NCBI GenBank assembly: GCA_050951325.1
Contig: JBMNIW010000006.1
Location: forward strand, 81,036-145,035
DNA: 64,000 bases
Origin: Clostridia bacterium
GTDB taxonomy: Bacteria; Bacillota; Clostridia; UBA1212; DUPL01
Direction of reading: 5' to 3'
Below the pieces are notes generated by a model. The model was not told the origin of the DNA. It did not search any database and saw nothing but the letters and a program-made list of their open reading frames with translations. Below, piece by piece: positions 43,231 through 50,274 of this stretch; within the stretch, counting starts at the first letter, position 1; every line of letters starts with the position of its first letter. The translations under genes were made by a program, and so were the position numbers.

Positions 43231-44727
43231 CTAATTCTTTTTTCTTAATACTAGAACAATTGTCACTATTCCAGCTACAATCGCCACGGAAGAAATTATA
43301 ATAATGATTGTATTTGAATCAATTCCCTTGTCGTGTTTTTCATCCTTGGTATTCCCTCCGTTATTCTCACCATTGTTCTCATCGCCGTTCTCATCATTGT
43401 CTCCAACCTCATCCGTTGGCTCAGGCTTCTGCTCAACATAGGACACTACAAGACAGTTCAGCACCTGCCTTTCAGCACCACCTTTGTCTGCAGGATTGTT
43501 TGCAACCTTGTACTCATTCTCATCCAGAACAACTGTCGTGGCAGATCCTCCACCATCAAATATGAAGGCATCAACAAGGTCCAGATCCTTGACAAGGTCC
43601 TTGTAAGAGGCAATTCCCACGCGGCCGCCATCATGCTTACTGGAACCGTATGTACCCATGATTATTTTTCCTTCCGAAGTGATTCCAATAAAAGCTGTAG
43701 GATAGGAACCACCAGGGGAAACATTTTGAAATCTTCCATTTACAACAAAGGGGATATGTCCACCGGTCGCAACCTTTGCTCTTCTCCACTCTTCTGTAAA
43801 TCTTCCGTTTTTGTCCCTTACATCAACCTTTATATTTATCTCATCCCCTATCTGGTAATCGGAGATTTTGGATACTCTTGAACCTCTTGCGGTAAGTATG
43901 ATCTTGTTTGAATTAGCTTCCATAACAGGATTGTCTTTATCTTCAGGTCCGTATATGGCAATAACTTTTCCCGTTATATCCGTTCCATGCTTTATGACAT
44001 AATCCGGCGTAGATGTAATGTCAATAACAACCTCAAAGGCATCATCCAGCGCATAATTGTTGGCACACCCTTTGTCAGTATACATGACAAGAGCATTGTT
44101 TGCCGGAAGTCTGTTTATTCCATCAGCTTTCGCATTTGTGTTCTTTGTCAAGTTCGTAATATTCACAGTTGCAGTAGGATTGGACAAGATAGGAATATTG
44201 TCCTCGGTAATTCCGAAACTCCAAAAATCACCTTCAAAAGGAGTTTCCTGCCGCATATGGGATGTGGATACTATTTCTCCGTCAATAACATTATATCCTC
44301 TAGGTAATGCCAAACCCTTCTTCACCACAGGATCGTTGTATCCACCATAGGAGGTTTCGCTGCCCAATACTCTGGAATGAGCATATGTAACCGTCCAAAG
44401 TTCTGCATTTATTGCAGCCAAAGCCTTCTTTCCATCCGTCCCGTTAAACTCCTTTATCATATCAGAAGTTCTCTTCCATGCATGGGTTATAAAAGGGCTG
44501 CCGTAAACATTATCAAAAACTATTCCTTCTTTTGAAAGGTCCACTTCTATCAGGTCAAACTGTACGTTGTTGTAATTCTTACCCGCCTTGATTTGAGTAT
44601 ACTTGACTCCGTCAGCAAGCTCCCTTTCAGCTGTGACCCTGTTATTCTCGCCGGTCAACGTATAAGCAAAAACACTCGAACATCCAACAATAGCGACAAT
44701 TAATAAAACAACTAGAATTTTTTTCAT
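43231..44727 (-). CDS. Phosphodiester glycosidase (NAGPA/DUF2233-like) surface protein with C-terminal TM anchor
   Basis: AAINA, TAFIGIT..G, AFIFDGGGSAT, NNPAD..ERQVLN; signal peptide. Confidence 0.75.
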   Translation of the reverse strand: MKKILVVLLIVAIVGCSSVFAYTLTGENNRVTAERELADGVKYTQIKAGKNYNNVQFDLIEVDLSKEGIVFDNVYGSPFITHAWKRTSDMIKEFNGTDGKKALAAINAELWTVTYAHSRVLGSETSYGGYNDPVVKKGLALPRGYNVIDGEIVSTSHMRQETPFEGDFWSFGITEDNIPILSNPTATVNITNLTKNTNAKADGINRLPANNALVMYTDKGCANNYALDDAFEVVIDITSTPDYVIKHGTDITGKVIAIYGPEDKDNPVMEANSNKIILTARGSRVSKISDYQIGDEINIKVDVRDKNGRFTEEWRRAKVATGGHIPFVVNGRFQNVSPGGSYPTAFIGITSEGKIIMGTYGSSKHDGGRVGIASYKDLVKDLDLVDAFIFDGGGSATTVVLDENEYKVANNPADKGGAERQVLNCLVVSYVEQKPEPTDEVGDNDENGDENNGENNGGNTKDEKHDKGIDSNTIIIIISSVAIVAGIVTIVLVLRKKN

Positions 44728-44963
44728 GTTTCACCCTCACACATTATATTTTTTTAATTATCTCACAAAAATCCTTTCATTACAAGAAATCAAATCTTAA
44801 TATAAATTCTCCGTCCTCAACATCCCCATCTCATAAAAGCCTTCCACAGACAGAACACAAACAACATTCTACTACTTTTTAGAAAAAATGTTATGATAAT
44901 TGAAAGATTTGCAGTACTTTTTTTGAAGTATATTAATGGGGGAAGAAAAAAGGAGGATATGGC

Positions 44964-45563
44964 TTGGATGAACTAATAGTTGACATACTAAAGAAAAACC
45001 CACAGAAGGGGTTAAAACTCATTATTGACCAATATACCGGATTAATTTACACAATATGCCATAACAAGCTTAAAGGAGTCATGTCTCACGAAGACATAGA
45101 GGAATGTGTTAGCGATGTTTTTGTTGATATTTACAAGCAGCGAGATATCATTGATCTTGCCGAAGGCTCGCTAAGAAGCTATTTGTGTGTCATTGCAAAG
45201 CGTAAAGCAATTAATTTATACAACTCGATGTCTTTAAAAAAGAATATTGCTGCAAAAAATGCAATACCTCTGGAGGACGACTTGCTGAACAAAGTGCAAG
45301 ATGAAAACCTCACCCCCGAAGAGATATACATAGAGTATGAAAACAGAATTGAAGTTGCCAAGGCCATAAGAGACTTGGGGGAACCAGACTGCGAGATACT
45401 TGTCAGAAAGTATTTCCTAATGGAAAGCTCAAAAAAAATAGCAGAGTGTTTTGGCATGAGTGCCAACGCAGTAGATATAAGGGTACATAGAGCTCTTAAG
45501 AAACTAAAAACAATGCTTGGAGGAAACGAAAGTGAAAAAAGAGAAACTGTCAAATCTATTTGA
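44964..45563 (+). CDS. ECF RNA polymerase sigma-70 factor
   Basis: TTG behind AGGAGG; region 2 (DIEECVSDVF, SYLCVIAKRKAIN); region 4 HTH (SKKIAECFGMSANAVDIRVHRALKKLK). Confidence 0.92.
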   Translation: MDELIVDILKKNPQKGLKLIIDQYTGLIYTICHNKLKGVMSHEDIEECVSDVFVDIYKQRDIIDLAEGSLRSYLCVIAKRKAINLYNSMSLKKNIAAKNAIPLEDDLLNKVQDENLTPEEIYIEYENRIEVAKAIRDLGEPDCEILVRKYFLMESSKKIAECFGMSANAVDIRVHRALKKLKTMLGGNESEKRETVKSI

Positions 45564-47253
45564 CGATCCTACTGTCGAAGAAACTGAAATTCTAGTTACT
45601 GATAATATTAAGACTGAGGAATTTGAATCCAGGAAAGGAATCATAACCAAAAAAGTATTGAAACAGATTCCGTCAGTTAAGAGAGTTTTTGTCGTGAGTA
45701 AAAAAGGTGTTTTTGCGGCAGCCGCTACAATAATTGCTCTATTTGTTATCTCACTTACAATAATTTTAGTCATGGATCGAGATCCAAGTAATGGTACAAT
45801 AATAAACAACCCAACTCCAACACCATCTATAACAAACCATATTACAACAACACCAAGTGTGATTCCGACAGCCACAGCGCCATCAACCACAAAGACGCCA
45901 GCACCTACAAAAACATCCACTCCAGCACCAGGAACTCCAACTGCAACAGCCGAGCCTACATCAGAACCCACTTCCACTCCTAAACCAACACCTTCTCCCA
46001 CCCCCATACAACCAAGAGAAGGTATTGAAAAAGACTGGCCGGATGATAATTGGGCACCCGCGAGCGCAACAGTATTTCTGGCAGATTATCCACCAGAATA
46101 CAGTTATTTTGATAACCGGTTTATGTTTGAGCTTCAAAATATTGTGAGTCAAAAAACAGTATTGGCTCTGGAGAAATTTTCGTATGGCACTGCATACGAG
46201 TTGTTAAAACAAGGAGGGAATGTAAACTACAGTCCATTAAGTCTGTACTTTGCACTGAGCCTGTGCGCTCAAGGTGCGGAAGGGGAAACTTTTGAGGAAC
46301 TCATGAATGTGTTGGGCCTGAACAATATGTCAAAAGAGTTCCTGATGGATGAGACAAGGAAATTGTACAACAGACTTTACATTGATCATGAGTTTGGAAA
46401 GTTAAAGATAGCAAACTCGGTCTGGCTGTCCAATCTTAATGGCGTTACCTATAAACAAACCTTTATTGACAACGCAAGACAGCATTTCTATGCAACCTTG
46501 TTCAGTGTGGATTTTACAGATGAAGATACAAGCAAACTAATGAAAAAATGGATATTTGACAACACCGAGGGAACACTTGCACCAGATTTTCCGCATGACC
46601 CTACAACCATATTTAAAATAATCAACACAATATATTATAGAAATCAATGGAACGAAGAGTTTGAAGAAGAAAACAACTATCTCGACAAGTTTTATGGATG
46701 CACTGAAACAACAGATATGGAGTTCATGAAAAGAACGGATGTGCAAGCAGAATACTATAAAGGCGAGGACTATACATGTACAACCCTGAGGGTTAAAGGC
46801 GGAAAGATGGTGTTCTTGCTGCCTGATGAAGGAGTCAGTATAGAAGACTTCCTGACCAGTCCGGGAAAACTGGAAGCAGCAATCAAATCCCCCACTATTT
46901 ATGCACCACTATTTGATGGGTATATGGTTACTTTGCATTTACCCAAGTTTGGATTTGAAAGCAAACTTGACCTGCTTGACATGGTCAAGAACCTAGGGCT
47001 GAATGATGCCTTTACAGATGTCGCAGATTTCTCAGCCATTACCGATATCGACTTGTTCTTGACCGATATTAAACAAGACACATATATTCAGGTTGATGAA
47101 AAAGGCATAACCGCATCAGCGGTAACCAATATCAGCGGTGGTATGGGTTCTCCAGAATGGATGGAAGTTGAAGTAAATCTGAACAGACCTTTTATTTACT
47201 GCATCATGCATGAAGAAAAAATGCCCATTTTCCTGGGCGTGTTTGCAAATTAA
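45532..47253 (+). CDS. Membrane-anchored serpin in the anti-sigma position (cytoplasmic N-domain, TM, PT stalk, serpin)
   Basis: GTG behind GGAGG, overlapping the sigma gene; serpin motifs YSPLSLYFALSLCAQGAEGET, INTIYYRNQW, LPKF, VDEKGITASAVT, LNRPFIY. Confidence 0.88.
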   Translation: MKKEKLSNLFDDPTVEETEILVTDNIKTEEFESRKGIITKKVLKQIPSVKRVFVVSKKGVFAAAATIIALFVISLTIILVMDRDPSNGTIINNPTPTPSITNHITTTPSVIPTATAPSTTKTPAPTKTSTPAPGTPTATAEPTSEPTSTPKPTPSPTPIQPREGIEKDWPDDNWAPASATVFLADYPPEYSYFDNRFMFELQNIVSQKTVLALEKFSYGTAYELLKQGGNVNYSPLSLYFALSLCAQGAEGETFEELMNVLGLNNMSKEFLMDETRKLYNRLYIDHEFGKLKIANSVWLSNLNGVTYKQTFIDNARQHFYATLFSVDFTDEDTSKLMKKWIFDNTEGTLAPDFPHDPTTIFKIINTIYYRNQWNEEFEEENNYLDKFYGCTETTDMEFMKRTDVQAEYYKGEDYTCTTLRVKGGKMVFLLPDEGVSIEDFLTSPGKLEAAIKSPTIYAPLFDGYMVTLHLPKFGFESKLDLLDMVKNLGLNDAFTDVADFSAITDIDLFLTDIKQDTYIQVDEKGITASAVTNISGGMGSPEWMEVEVNLNRPFIYCIMHEEKMPIFLGVFAN

Positions 47254-47621
47254 TACGCCTACCACGTTCGATGCTACAGGGATAAAAACACTTGTGAGAT
47301 CCAATGGCGAATCCATCTATCCGCATATAAATATTGTAAGTATAAAAACATGGAGTAACCTTGCAGAAGGCGATTGGCTTCAAGTCAGCAGCATGTCAGT
47401 AGCATATTTTTTAGAGGATGTTGCCGGACAATTACCCACCTTGATTTAAGAAGAGGATTTCTCCGTGGAATACAGCGCCAATGTTTCGTTTTACTTTGTA
47501 GACATTTACACAAGTGATTTTACCCGCATCCATCACTATAGAGAAAGGAAACTATGTCGAGGAAGCAGACGATTATGAAAGCGCAACCTTGGAATGTACA
47601 TTCACTTTAATAAAGAATTAA
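47243..47621 (+). pseudogene. Disrupted ORF remnant between the serpin gene and the terminator
   Basis: Coding-like frame broken by TAA at 47447-47449, continuing EEDFSVEYSANV..., then another frame ITIEKGNYVEEADDYESATLECTFTLIKN ending TAA 47619-47621. Confidence 0.45.
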
Positions 47622-47627
47622 ATCTTT

Positions 47628-47652
47628 AATGGGGCTGTCAGGCAGCCCCATT
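47628..47652. terminator. Intrinsic terminator closing the sigma-serpin unit
   Basis: AATGGGGCTG-TCAGG-CAGCCCCATT then TT. Confidence 0.75.
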
Positions 47653-47657
47653 TTGCT

Positions 47658-47861
47658 TTAAATACCAATACTGGAAATACTGTCGACAAATGCCTGCATT
47701 TCCGCCTTTGATTTGATTCCCCTGGTTCTGCCAATAACACTTCTTTGCTTGTCAGGACTCAATGAAGAGAAGTACTGCATGGAATTCATATTTTGTGCAA
47801 GAGCCATGGCAAAACCAATGGGGACTTCTCCATTTGTCAAATTTTTCTCCATTCCAGCCAC
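47658..47861 (-). CDS. Small conserved clostridial hypothetical protein
   Basis: PIGFAMALAQN...SKAEMQAFV pattern. Confidence 0.7.
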   Translation of the reverse strand: MAGMEKNLTNGEVPIGFAMALAQNMNSMQYFSSLSPDKQRSVIGRTRGIKSKAEMQAFVDSISSIGI

Positions 47862-47905
47862 CCCTGATTATTTTCCACACAAAAAAATATTATATCCATG
47901 AAAAA

Positions 47906-48214
47906 TCAAACCATTTTTAAGAGAGCTTTTTTACCTGGCATCCCTTTTGTTATTCCAAGTTTTTCAGCTTCATTAGTAACAGACTCCAAAGGAGCTTCAA
48001 GAAGTTCCTCGATAGTTCTAACTCCAACTGCTCTTCCCGCAATAATTTTCCTGTCTTTCAATTTTTCATTTAATAAAGAAACATCCAAAGCACCGCACAT
48101 GATATATCCTTTATCTGATGAAACAACAAGCAGGGTGGTTTTAGGAAGCTGTACAGAAACAGCAATAAATACATAACCATCCAGATTAATTGGTTTTACA
48201 TCAATCATCCGCAC
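47906..48214 (-). CDS. YunC/DUF1805 family protein
   Basis: LPKTTLL, GYIMCGALDV, AGRAVGVRTIEELL. Confidence 0.88.
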   Translation of the reverse strand: MRMIDVKPINLDGYVFIAVSVQLPKTTLLVVSSDKGYIMCGALDVSLLNEKLKDRKIIAGRAVGVRTIEELLEAPLESVTNEAEKLGITKGMPGKKALLKMV

Positions 48215-48253
48215 ATCCCCTTTCGTTTATAGATTATGCGTTTAAAAACAATA

Positions 48254-48281
48254 TTGCCACTTTGGAAAATTCTGATATAAT
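48254..48281 (+). promoter_or_regulatory. SigA-type promoter of the frameshifted lipoprotein
   Basis: TTGCCA-16 bp-TATAAT with TG extension. Confidence 0.6.
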
Positions 48282-48317
48282 TGCAATTAACACAGAATAA
48301 AAAGGTGCGTGATTCAA

Positions 48318-50274
48318 ATGAGAAAGCTGGTATTAATTTTAATACTTGTTATTGCATTAGTAACAACATCCTGCGGAATAGTTGCAGAAGACATCAGAAT
48401 CCCAAAAAAAAACCCCCGAAAAAACCGCTGAGAAAACCCCTGAGAAAACATATGGCAATTCAATTATCCCTCCATATCCTACACCTGTTAATACGTCACC
48501 AGACTTTGTAACAATAATGGATAGAACAGATACGTCAAAATCAAAAATAAAAAGGGAATTTTCAATTATGCTTGAAAAGAAATATATTGATCATTTTGTT
48601 GATGGTGAGTATGTCTATCTGTTAATGAGTGGTTCAACCAAAGACAATGTGATTTGGGTTTTCACAAACGGCACTTTTGAGACAGCGAGCACCTTTGAAG
48701 CACCAGAAAGCTCAAAACTCCTGTATGTGGAAGGAGATACCTTGTACATAGGAACATTCGACACAATCTACGAATATGACAAAAACACTTATGAGCAAAA
48801 AAAGAAACATACGATTAATGTCATGACGAACAACATGCTGGTATATAACGGGATTATATATATTTCCGCTGTTAGAACAGGTGGGCAGCACATAATCGCC
48901 ATACCACCAGAAGGTCCAGGCTTTTCTGCAAGGGTGGATAATACAGAAGGCATGTGTGTTAATAAGGATGAAGGCATTCTTTATGTAGCAGGAAAATCAA
49001 AGCTTTATGCTTTCAAGCTGGATAACCTGGAACTCATAAAAGAGATAGACCTCCCTCACAATCAGGAAAAGAAGATGGTCTTCTACGACAGTGGAAAAGT
49101 TTATACGGCAGGCTGCGTATATGACAGCAGCAATCTGGATAATTTTATAGCGTTGATCGAAATAAATCCAGCCAAAGAAAAAGAAACATATTATGCAGAC
49201 TCAAACTATGTTATTACAGAGGAAGGAGTCTTCGACAGCCAGACTCTTGACATAATAATGCCATTGGAACGAAAACTGCACCGCTGCTTTATAACCAGCT
49301 CAGGAAACGTTTTTATTATCCCGAGCCAATCAGGAACCATTATAGATATTCAAAACATAAATGATTACCTGGACGACATAAAAAGCAAAACTTTCTACAC
49401 AATTGTAGAAAAGGATGCATCCCTTGCCTGGAATGGAAAGCCCAAAATTACAAGCTACTTGCTGAATGATGAAGTGATTGACATGGCAGGAACAGACAAA
49501 ATATGCTACTTGGCAACATCCAATCAGAACAAGCTGATTGCCTTCAAGGTGGATACCATGGAAGTTGTTTTCTCTTTCCTGCTGCCTGGCGTTCCCGGCA
49601 GGTTGGTTATATATGATAGTGAGGCAATGATTTCCTTCCCTGATCTAAAAGTTATAAAATGCTATGATAGGACAACGGGCAAGTACTTAAGGGATATACC
49701 CCTTGAAAACCAGGTATACTCGTTTGCTGTACATGGCAGCTTTCTTTACTATACCATTAAAGGCTCATCATACATCTACAAACACAACCTTGGTGACAAC
49801 ACATCAATTTCCAAATCCGTCAGTTCTGATTTGGATTTCGTTATAAATGCGGAGGATGAAGTAATATATGCAACAAATGATCGTAATCTGTACGTTCTGG
49901 ATATGCATGAACTTAATATTTTCTCAATATTCAGTAGTGACAGCTATGCTGGCAAAAGCACAAGAACCGTATTCTATATAGACTACAAGATATATGCATT
50001 AGGCCATGCTTTTGATAAAAACGACACAACAAAACCAATAATGAATTATAGTACATCAAAAAGCGACATGAAGGTACTTTTCGCAGATAATGAATATGTT
50101 GTATGCATTGACGGCATCTACTCAAGAAAATCAGGCGAGCGGCTAATAACGATAGACCTGAATTTGCTAAATGCCTGGATCGAAAATGGATACTTTGTAG
50201 GCTTTGTAAAAGGATACACAAAATCCGGAAGCAAACTTTATGTTGGCTCCATGTCTTCAATGGTAAATGGATAG
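48318..50274 (+). pseudogene. Beta-propeller-like lipoprotein frameshifted at an A9 tract (phase-variable, pseudogene or read error)
   Basis: ATG 48318 encodes MRKLVLILILVIALVTTSC but stops at TGA 48429-48431; removing one A from 48404-48412 joins it to the long ORF ending at 50274. Confidence 0.8.

Follow-up and report, generated by a model that had tools for sequence, protein, structure and literature searches.

A membrane-anchored serpin as the proposed anti-sigma factor of an ECF sigma factor in a Clostridia bacterium

Introduction

In the SigV/RsiV system (ECF30) of Bacillus subtilis and other Firmicutes, the ectodomain of the anti-sigma factor RsiV directly binds lysozyme, site-1 cleavage and then RasP follow, and the freed SigV induces resistance (PMC6066255). 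In RsiV and in further anti-sigma factors of Firmicutes, the domain next to the transmembrane (TM) helix is DUF4179 (PMC6066255; PMC7826278). In this study, a gene for an extracytoplasmic function (ECF) sigma factor and an overlapping gene for a TM serpin were analyzed in a stretch of 64,000 nucleotides (nt) from a Clostridia bacterium (contig JBMNIW010000006.1, positions 81,036 to 145,035), which is hereafter the window. Three lines of evidence, which are the cytoplasmic head shared with the non-serpin partners of related sigma factors, a predicted complex of this head with the sigma factor and the synteny of the two genes, strongly support that the serpin protein is the anti-sigma factor of the ECF sigma factor. 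The pairing of ECF sigma factors with anti-sigma factors is known. What appears to be new is a serpin as the proposed sensor-effector domain of an anti-sigma factor.

Similar to RsiV, the window protein is a single-pass protein in the anti-sigma position whose ectodomain would bind a hostile enzyme, and the DUF4179 domain of RsiV is present in several partners of the relatives of the window sigma factor. Different from RsiV, the window ectodomain is a serpin in place of the fold that binds lysozyme, DUF4179 was not detected in the window protein, and the enzyme to be countered would be a protease and could therefore make the site-1 cut itself. The SigI/RsgI systems of cellulolytic clostridia are also similar in that a conserved head and a TM helix are combined with swappable sensor ectodomains, often through Pro/Thr linkers, and RsgI_M was found on one partner of the relatives of the window sigma factor. 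RsgI sensors bind polysaccharides, whereas the window ectodomain is a serpin. In SigI-like sigma factors, a SigI-C domain replaces the canonical sigma-4 domain (PMC7826278), whereas the window sigma factor possesses Sigma70_r4_2.

RseA of the RseA/SigE system and RsiW of the RsiW/SigW system are likewise single-pass anti-sigma factors, which are eliminated by a cut at site 1 and then another at site 2, and an M50 protease is encoded in the genome of the window. In those two systems the signal is sensed by dedicated site-1 proteases, DegS and PrsW, respectively, whereas the window ectodomain would itself be the bait for a protease.

The bacterial serpins tengpin, miropin, thermopin, the siropins and the Bifidobacterium serpin possess the same fold and an inhibitory-type hinge, and many of them are cell-associated. 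Different from the window protein, no fusion to a sigma-binding head is described for any of them. When protease is added to Bifidobacterium breve, transcription of its serpin gene is induced via a neighbouring two-component system, which is the nearest functional precedent (PMC8012564). Its sensor, however, is the separate two-component system, whereas sensor, anchor and effector would be a single polypeptide in the window. In the accessible part of a phylogenetic analysis of serpins, the prokaryotic serpins are classed by signal peptide, with 'membrane anchored' among the classes, and sigma factors are unmentioned (PMC8233489). The initial annotation of this DNA knew of no described serpin anti-sigma factor, and searches of the full-text literature likewise found no description of one or of a serpin in an ECF operon. 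In the ECF re-classification, the word 'serpin' occurs 0 times in the main text; its supplementary group tables, which were not covered, might list a serpin in the gene neighbourhood of some group (PMC7826278).

Organization of the sigma-serpin locus

The locus consists of two overlapping open reading frames (ORFs) on the + strand. Its features are as follows, with the confidence of AlphaFold2 models given as the predicted local distance difference test (pLDDT).

44950-44956, + strand: Shine-Dalgarno sequence AAGGAGG of the sigma gene, read directly in the sequence
44964-45563, + strand: ECF-type sigma factor of 199 aa with a TTG start, recognized by Pfam and TIGR02937
45519-45523, + strand: Shine-Dalgarno sequence GGAGG of the serpin gene, within the 3' end of the sigma gene, read directly in the sequence
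45532-47253, + strand: TM-serpin ORF of 573 aa with a GTG start
45532-45699, + strand: cytoplasmic head, residues 1-56, the proposed sigma-binding anti-sigma module, from alignment with the heads of non-serpin partners and a predicted complex
45700-45774, + strand: single TM helix, residues 57-81, from hydropathy and an AlphaFold2 helix with pLDDT 86-89
45790-46011, + strand: disordered Pro/Thr-rich stalk, residues ~87-160, from the sequence and pLDDT <50
46039-46176, + strand: clade-specific N-terminal extension of the serpin, 'YPxxYxF...', residues ~170-215, from conservation
46177-47253, + strand: serpin domain up to the stop codon, from Pfam, fold and Foldseek/phmmer matches
47098-47157, + strand: hinge and reactive-centre loop (RCL), from E523 (P17) to E542 (P3'), from the hinge count and low pLDDT over residues 531-542

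The initial annotation had described an ECF sigma gene that overlaps the next gene by 32 nt, a GTG start at 45532 preceded by GGAGG, a cytoplasmic part of about 57 residues followed by one TM helix, a Pro/Thr stalk and a complete serpin. Each of these elements was recovered. The 32-nt overlap follows from the coordinates of the two ORFs and, with the Shine-Dalgarno sequence inside the sigma gene, points to translational coupling, the GGAGG sequence was read at 45519-45523, the head comprises ~56 residues ahead of the AlphaFold2 helix at residues 57-81, stalk residues 87-159 were below pLDDT 50, and the Pfam Serpin model matched residues 216-572 over model positions 6-368 of 370 (E = 5.7e-64).

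The sigma factor contains only a sigma-2 domain (Sigma70_r2, residues 21-86) and a sigma-4 domain (Sigma70_r4_2, residues 130-181), and in domain content and size it is an ECF (group 4) sigma factor. Its match to TIGR02937 (sigma70-ECF) scored 66.8 bits, compared with a cut-off of 42.9. No other NCBIfam model reached its cut-off on the sigma factor, and SigV was absent among the 25 best matches listed.

Predicted binding of the cytoplasmic head

The complex of the sigma factor with residues 1-60 of the serpin protein was predicted with ipSAE scores of 0.87, 0.86 and 0.84 in three runs, while the best of three controls scored 0.03. The mark applied to such predictions was met by 58 of 80 solved complexes and by 2 of 110 mismatched pairs. 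Contacts agreed by at least 90% among the runs, and the pLDDT of the partner was at least 77. The predicted interface on the sigma factor comprised residues 13-83 in sigma-2 as well as residues 117-152 and residue 181 in sigma-4, so that the head is predicted to contact both domains, as is expected of a single-pass anti-sigma factor. On the head, the predicted contact residues were 10, 14-21 and 38-42. Solved complexes of sigma and anti-sigma factors exist, and the score may partly reflect likeness to them. The initial annotation had suggested predicting the complex of the sigma factor with residues 1-57, and the prediction obtained for residues 1-60 (0.86 vs 0.03 for the control) supports binding.

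Neither Cys nor His occurs in residues 1-56, and the head is therefore not a zinc-binding anti-sigma domain (ZAS, HxxxCxxC). The head had no match in Pfam or NCBIfam, and NCBIfam did not match the partners described below either. When the protein was modelled alone with AlphaFold2, confidence over residues 1-54 was low (pLDDT 35-44). Together, the 32-nt overlap, the predicted binding and, weakly, contigs from RNA libraries place a cognate anti-sigma gene directly 3' of the sigma gene, as is expected for ECF sigma factors.

Non-serpin partners of related sigma factors

Relatives of the window sigma factor were searched for in 45 genomes of the same order and in 400 genomes sampled from the class, of which 398 were scored. 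The nearest relatives were 38-45% identical to the window sigma factor; five of their loci were in the same order, and more were in the class sample. Each of these sigma genes is followed by a gene for a single-pass protein, with overlapping or abutting reading frames. The N-termini of these partners align with the head of the window protein over two short helices, a basic stretch and the TM helix (alignment A5). Their ectodomains, however, are not serpins. Among ten partners scanned, DUF4179 was found in six (above the Pfam cut-off in two), a weak match to DUF5643 accompanied DUF4179 in two, RsgI_M was found in one at 117.9 bits, and three had no real match. These domains are of the kinds known from anti-sigma factors. 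Because partners with DUF4179, DUF5643 or RsgI_M share the head, it can be counted among the heads of an anti-sigma family, for which the serpin is one of several alternative ectodomains.

No close paralog of the window sigma factor was found in the same genome (G000). This genome encodes about a dozen ECF-like sigma factors (e.g., at C8:167575-168704, C7:46918-48852 and C12:329054-330142), most of which precede a single-pass partner; some of these partners are of the zinc-finger type and several possess Pro/Thr-rich stalks similar to that of the window protein.

Conservation and evolution of the sigma-serpin pair

The survey of serpins, for which one genome per species was used, identified at least 569 relatives, of which the best 80 loci were examined. 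An ECF sigma gene was immediately 5' of a serpin gene with a cytoplasmic head and a TM helix in 27 of the 80 loci. At the junction of the two genes in these 27 loci, 24 showed a 4-nt overlap, two had gaps of 13 and 21 nt, and one was a single continuous frame. No sigma gene was found 5' of any of the 45 serpin ORFs whose N-terminus contains a lipobox, is a short signal anchor or could not be classified. The remaining serpin ORFs comprised six partial ones and eight with a head and TM helix but without a sigma gene, among which one was a mis-started lipoprotein and three had upstream DNA too short to judge. In 40 genomes of the window's own order, 19 serpin loci were fetched (L005-L023) and two more pairs were found (L006 and L014); the other serpin loci among them had lipoprotein-type, truncated or unclassifiable N-termini. 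Thus, the conserved sigma-serpin synteny that the initial annotation had called for was found, both among the best 80 loci and in the two same-order pairs. In an Oscillospiraceae metagenome-assembled genome (L101:2574-4649), sigma factor and TM serpin lie in a single frame of 721 aa with no stop codon between them, which is either a natural fusion of sigma and anti-sigma factors or a sequencing error.

The sigma factors of the 27 loci formed a uniform clade of 185-aa proteins ('MEDxQIIELYW...') that were 22-27% identical to the window sigma factor. The serpins of this main clade possess a different and shorter head, 'MKEKKlFDAITnvxDElIEEA'. The head motif [FLMYI][DNH]A[IMV][TS], which was defined post hoc and over related genomes that are not independent, was present in 21 of 21 coupled serpins of the main clade, in 0 of 7 nested orphans and in 0 of 45 others. 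These seven orphan TM serpins lie within the coupled clade and lack a sigma gene on the 5' side, and the motif is decayed or deleted in all of their heads. Such decay would be expected if the head is kept only as long as a sigma factor remains to be held. No remnants of a sigma gene were found 5' of the orphan TM serpins, with upstream DNA too short to judge in L050, L088 and L100. Sigma-less TM serpins with lost or decayed heads that are nested among the coupled forms were noted at L045, L078 (Gorillibacterium), L035, L040, L050, L053, L054, L069 and L094. To judge from these sequences, the serpin would evidently persist as a plain surface inhibitor once the regulator is lost. The complex prediction, the heads shared with other partners and the motif decay in orphans all point the same way as the initial proposal that a membrane serpin occupies the anti-sigma slot and that its head binds the sigma factor, which probably holds.

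A maximum-likelihood tree of 85 serpin domains was inferred under LG+G4 with a quick search, and some of its long branches were flagged. Coupled and uncoupled forms interleave in this tree. The sigma label requires 17 changes, at least eight of which are forced by well-supported branches, and the exact number of coupling and uncoupling events is soft. The window serpin is sister to a lipoprotein serpin with an SH-aLRT support of 96, and the serpin of L014 is placed inside a distant lipoprotein clade. A single origin of the coupling is thus excluded by the well-supported branches, and the tree indicates that the joining of serpins to sigma factors arose or was lost repeatedly, involving at least two unlike sigma clades.

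Serpin paralogs are often in tandem, as at L082:1620-5028, L049 and L030, and at L082 a lipoprotein serpin is directly 5' of the sigma-serpin pair. Moreover, two tandem lipoprotein-type serpins were found outside the window at G000 C1:222048-224110 (L001 and L003), the second of which is 324 aa long and matches Pfam model positions 2-278 of 370. No sigma gene is beside these two serpins, and a nearby -35-like word points the wrong way.

Features of the serpin domain

The AlphaFold2 model of the 573-aa protein was built on 56 relatives, and most of the serpin core was modelled with pLDDT >90. The best Foldseek match was native tengpin (2pee_A, E = 9e-30, TM-score 0.83), and the phmmer matches included conserpin, miropin (5ncs), tengpin and alpha-1-antitrypsin. 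A full serpin fold was thus found by Pfam, pLDDT and Foldseek. The N-terminal extension of the serpin is conserved in lipoprotein and sigma-coupled relatives, and its residue P187 is invariant in alignments A1 and A3 and present in at least 90% of the rows of alignment A6.

The inward-facing positions of a serpin hinge are P14, P12, P10 and P8. In the window serpin the hinge is E523-K-G-I-T-A-S-A-V-T532, in which these positions are Ile, Ala, Ala and Thr, respectively. The coupled and the lipoprotein forms share the pattern E-x-G-[VI]-x-A-[SA]-A-x-T, which is equally well conserved in both. Counting 17 residues from P17 gave M538 as P2, G539 as P1 and S540 as P1', and P1 of the relatives by the same count was mostly Ala, Ser or Gly. 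The loop of the window serpin is three residues longer than that of alpha-1-antitrypsin, and the position of the scissile bond is therefore uncertain by a few residues. Within this uncertainty, the count agrees with the hinge EKGITASAVT, P14 Ile and P1-P1' near M-G/G-S that had been read earlier. Residues 531-542 (P9 to P3') were modelled with low confidence, as is expected for an exposed RCL. On sequence grounds, the hinge should permit insertion of the loop: P12-P9 are small residues, and P14, for which Ile or Val is an unusual choice, is neither charged nor bulky. Both the hinge and the exposed RCL look like those of inhibitory serpins.

Promoter, regulon and expression

Two further elements, both on the + strand, flank the gene pair.

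44901-44910, + strand: -35-like element TGAAAGATTT, 63 nt 5' of the sigma start, an instance of the conserved word TG[TA][AC]AGATTT
47628-47652, + strand: intrinsic-terminator-like hairpin closing the unit, an 11-pair stem followed by a T run

The word TG[TA][AC]AGATTT was found 53-103 nt 5' of 9 of 17 related sigma genes (shuffle mean 0.04), while the main clade shared the motif GAATAT-N12-CCTGTCT in 19 of 25 loci (shuffle mean 0.15); both motifs were defined post hoc, and the related genomes are not independent. The -10 element is ill-defined in the window, while the -35-like word is present. A palindrome, GAATCGATTC, was observed after the -10 region 5' of window-type sigma genes in L106, L108 and L118 and was absent in the window. 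It could be an operator or an element of the 5' untranslated region (UTR).

When five whole genomes of the main clade were scanned for the full main-clade motif, the motif occurred at the operon alone in four, apart from a single additional site that no gene follows. The fifth (G432) was beyond the reach of the pattern, since its site is the variant CCCGTCT. The genome of the window contains 73 copies of the -35-like word, of which 2 were in promoter position, namely the operon's own copy and one that precedes a probably unrelated gene. This whole-genome scan revealed no convincing second target of the window sigma factor, and no conserved third gene was found downstream of the sigma-serpin pair. 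The simplest reading of these sequence patterns, which they weakly support, is a self-contained and autoregulated two-gene cassette whose product would be the surface serpin.

Contigs from RNA libraries span the sigma-serpin junction in three of four runs, which is a weak sign of expression, as such libraries may hold DNA and contigs cannot prove a single transcript. The terminator that the initial annotation had placed at 47628 corresponds to the 11-pair hairpin at 47628-47652. RNA-library contigs extend beyond the serpin stop codon to 47611, where one of them (X15 record 4) ends; depth and gaps of these contigs were not used for locating transcript ends. At the other end of the unit, contigs of two RNA libraries (X15 and X16) break at the same position, 44862, upstream of which they share a sequence unlike that of the window. 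This suggests a strain variant just 5' of the promoter region. In addition, the stretch was found in metagenomes of anaerobic digesters, bioreactors and sludge, in 20 rows that represent 19 studies, and the assembly may itself derive from some of these.

Between the serpin stop codon and the terminator are 374 nt (47254-47627) that hold only frame-broken scraps of ORFs, which may reflect either a long 3' UTR or a gene in decay. No Rfam family was found in 44500-48300. On the 5' side, a divergent gene (43231-44727, - strand) encodes a NAGPA (phosphodiester glycosidase) protein of 498 aa that is anchored by a TM segment at its C-terminus, and on the 3' side, 48382-50274 (+ strand) encodes a 630-aa protein without a Pfam match. 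Neither neighbour is kept beside the sigma-serpin module elsewhere.

Discussion

We consider it somewhat probable that the two genes encode an ECF sigma factor and its single-pass anti-sigma factor with an inhibitory-type serpin on a Pro/Thr stalk, that the pair is autoregulating and that the sigma factor is freed when the ectodomain is proteolysed. At rest, the head of 56 residues would clamp the sigma factor between its sigma-2 and sigma-4 domains, as prediction and comparison support. Extracellular proteases would consume the serpin as a suicide substrate or exceed its capacity, and the stalk or the juxtamembrane region would then be cut at site 1. A membrane M50 site-2 protease would clip the remaining TM stub and so free the sigma factor; a Peptidase_M50 homologue (173.4 bits) is encoded in the genome of the window. 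The sigma factor would mainly drive its own promoter, and the output would be more sigma factor and more surface serpin, so that the higher the protease load, the more of the spent serpin would be replaced. That the sigma factor would be released by proteolytic loss of the ectodomain is what we infer.

Several points weigh against this reading. When a serpin is cleaved at the reactive loop, its C-terminal piece stays bound in the fold, and site-2 proteases normally require that the ectodomain is removed first. The piece C-terminal of such a cleavage is ~34 residues in the window serpin, and because it would stay bound, loop cleavage alone would not shed the ectodomain, which speaks against the simplest version of the mechanism, that of the initial annotation, in which a serpin that traps a protease would change conformation and thereby free the sigma factor. 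The serpin body would remain tethered, so that a separate site-1 cut is needed, for which neither a site nor a protease was identified. An RsiV-type switch operated by signal peptidase cannot simply be assumed either, since DUF4179 is missing: Pfam gave Serpin alone for the window protein at E values up to 0.01, and the Pro/Thr stalk comes directly after the TM helix. Inspection by eye revealed no RsiV-like, AxA-type signal-peptidase site after the TM helix. Moreover, P14, a position usually taken by Thr or Ser, is Ile in the window serpin and Val in its relatives, and the hinge count places a small residue, Gly, at P1. The window-type head could be aligned by hhalign with the main-clade head over the basic and TM stretch only, and common descent of the two head types beyond that stretch is not shown by their sequences. 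The scans for the regulon used strict patterns, which could miss weaker sites. To the same side belong the post hoc definition of the head and promoter motifs, the relatedness of the genomes in which they were counted, and the possible DNA in the RNA libraries.

Two variants are favoured because of the difficulty with loop cleavage. In one, the protein would be an overflow sensor, in which protease beyond the local serpin capacity would cut the disordered stalk or the juxtamembrane segment. In the other, a replenishment circuit, the spent serpin-protease complex would be cleared by a site-1 cut, and one sigma factor would be freed per consumed inhibitor. As a real possibility, held tentatively, we propose a consumption-coupled switch in which each serpin that is spent or destroyed would free one sigma factor, with sensor, effector and anti-sigma factor in one polypeptide, and which would have evolved several times, with no fewer than two ECF clades, unrelated to each other, and two or more clades of serpins involved.

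The main rival explanation, which we rate as unlikely although plausible, accepts a true pair of sigma and anti-sigma factors but takes the serpin as output rather than sensor: general envelope or secretion stress, or turnover, would remove the anti-sigma factor, which would serve the serpin as a handy membrane anchor, and synthesis of the inhibitor would be self-limiting. The evidence for binding and synteny fits this explanation equally well, the inability of RCL cleavage to shed the ectodomain by the established serpin mechanism favours it, and a regulon that is apparently the operon itself is in keeping with plain homeostatic autoregulation. However, for most related serpins (45 ORFs) a lipobox or a plain anchor suffices, and a sigma-binding head was gained repeatedly from at least two ECF clades, which suggests selection for a link between transcription and the fate of the ectodomain. 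Moreover, a suicide substrate that is protease-labile and carried on a disordered stalk would be an obvious proteolytic trigger.

Two other explanations fare worse. Non-inhibitory serpins exist, and the window serpin could be a ligand-binding sensor of the hormone-carrier or chaperone type that reports a molecule other than a protease. Ile or Val instead of Thr or Ser at P14, small and unremarkable P1 residues and Foldseek matches that include corticosteroid- and thyroxine-binding globulins agree with such a role, but Ala, Ala and Thr at P12, P10 and P8 are inhibitor-like, the hinge is equally conserved in the lipoprotein paralogs, the RCL is exposed in the model, and the closest solved sequence relatives, tengpin, miropin and alpha-1-antitrypsin, are inhibitory. 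We therefore find this explanation improbable. It is still more improbable, to the point of being hard to sustain, that the adjacency of the two genes has no regulatory meaning, with the head as a membrane-targeting leader and the sigma factor controlled elsewhere. The head does lack Pfam and NCBIfam matches and is poorly modelled alone (pLDDT 35-44), yet it scored 0.86 vs 0.03 in the predicted complex and occurs on partners with DUF4179 and RsgI_M, the coupled loci number 27 and mostly (24 of 27) show 4-nt overlaps, and the head motif was lost in 7 of 7 orphans.

If the proposed reading holds, ECF signalling would include a sensor domain that has a protease as its ligand and whose own irreversible trapping and conformational change could generate the signal. 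A consumption-coupled switch would bring about resynthesis of the inhibitor in proportion to the protease. Across genomes, anti-sigma heads and ectodomains are swapped as cassettes, in which one and the same head is joined to a serpin, DUF4179/DUF5643 or RsgI_M. The module consists of two genes with their own promoter and recurs in Clostridia of digesters, rumen and gut; it could act as a chassis for protease biosensors, and testing with a heterologous reporter would be easy. For the biology of serpins, this protein would be the first serpin that is wired directly to transcription, which would explain how an inhibitor that is consumed stoichiometrically is replaced.

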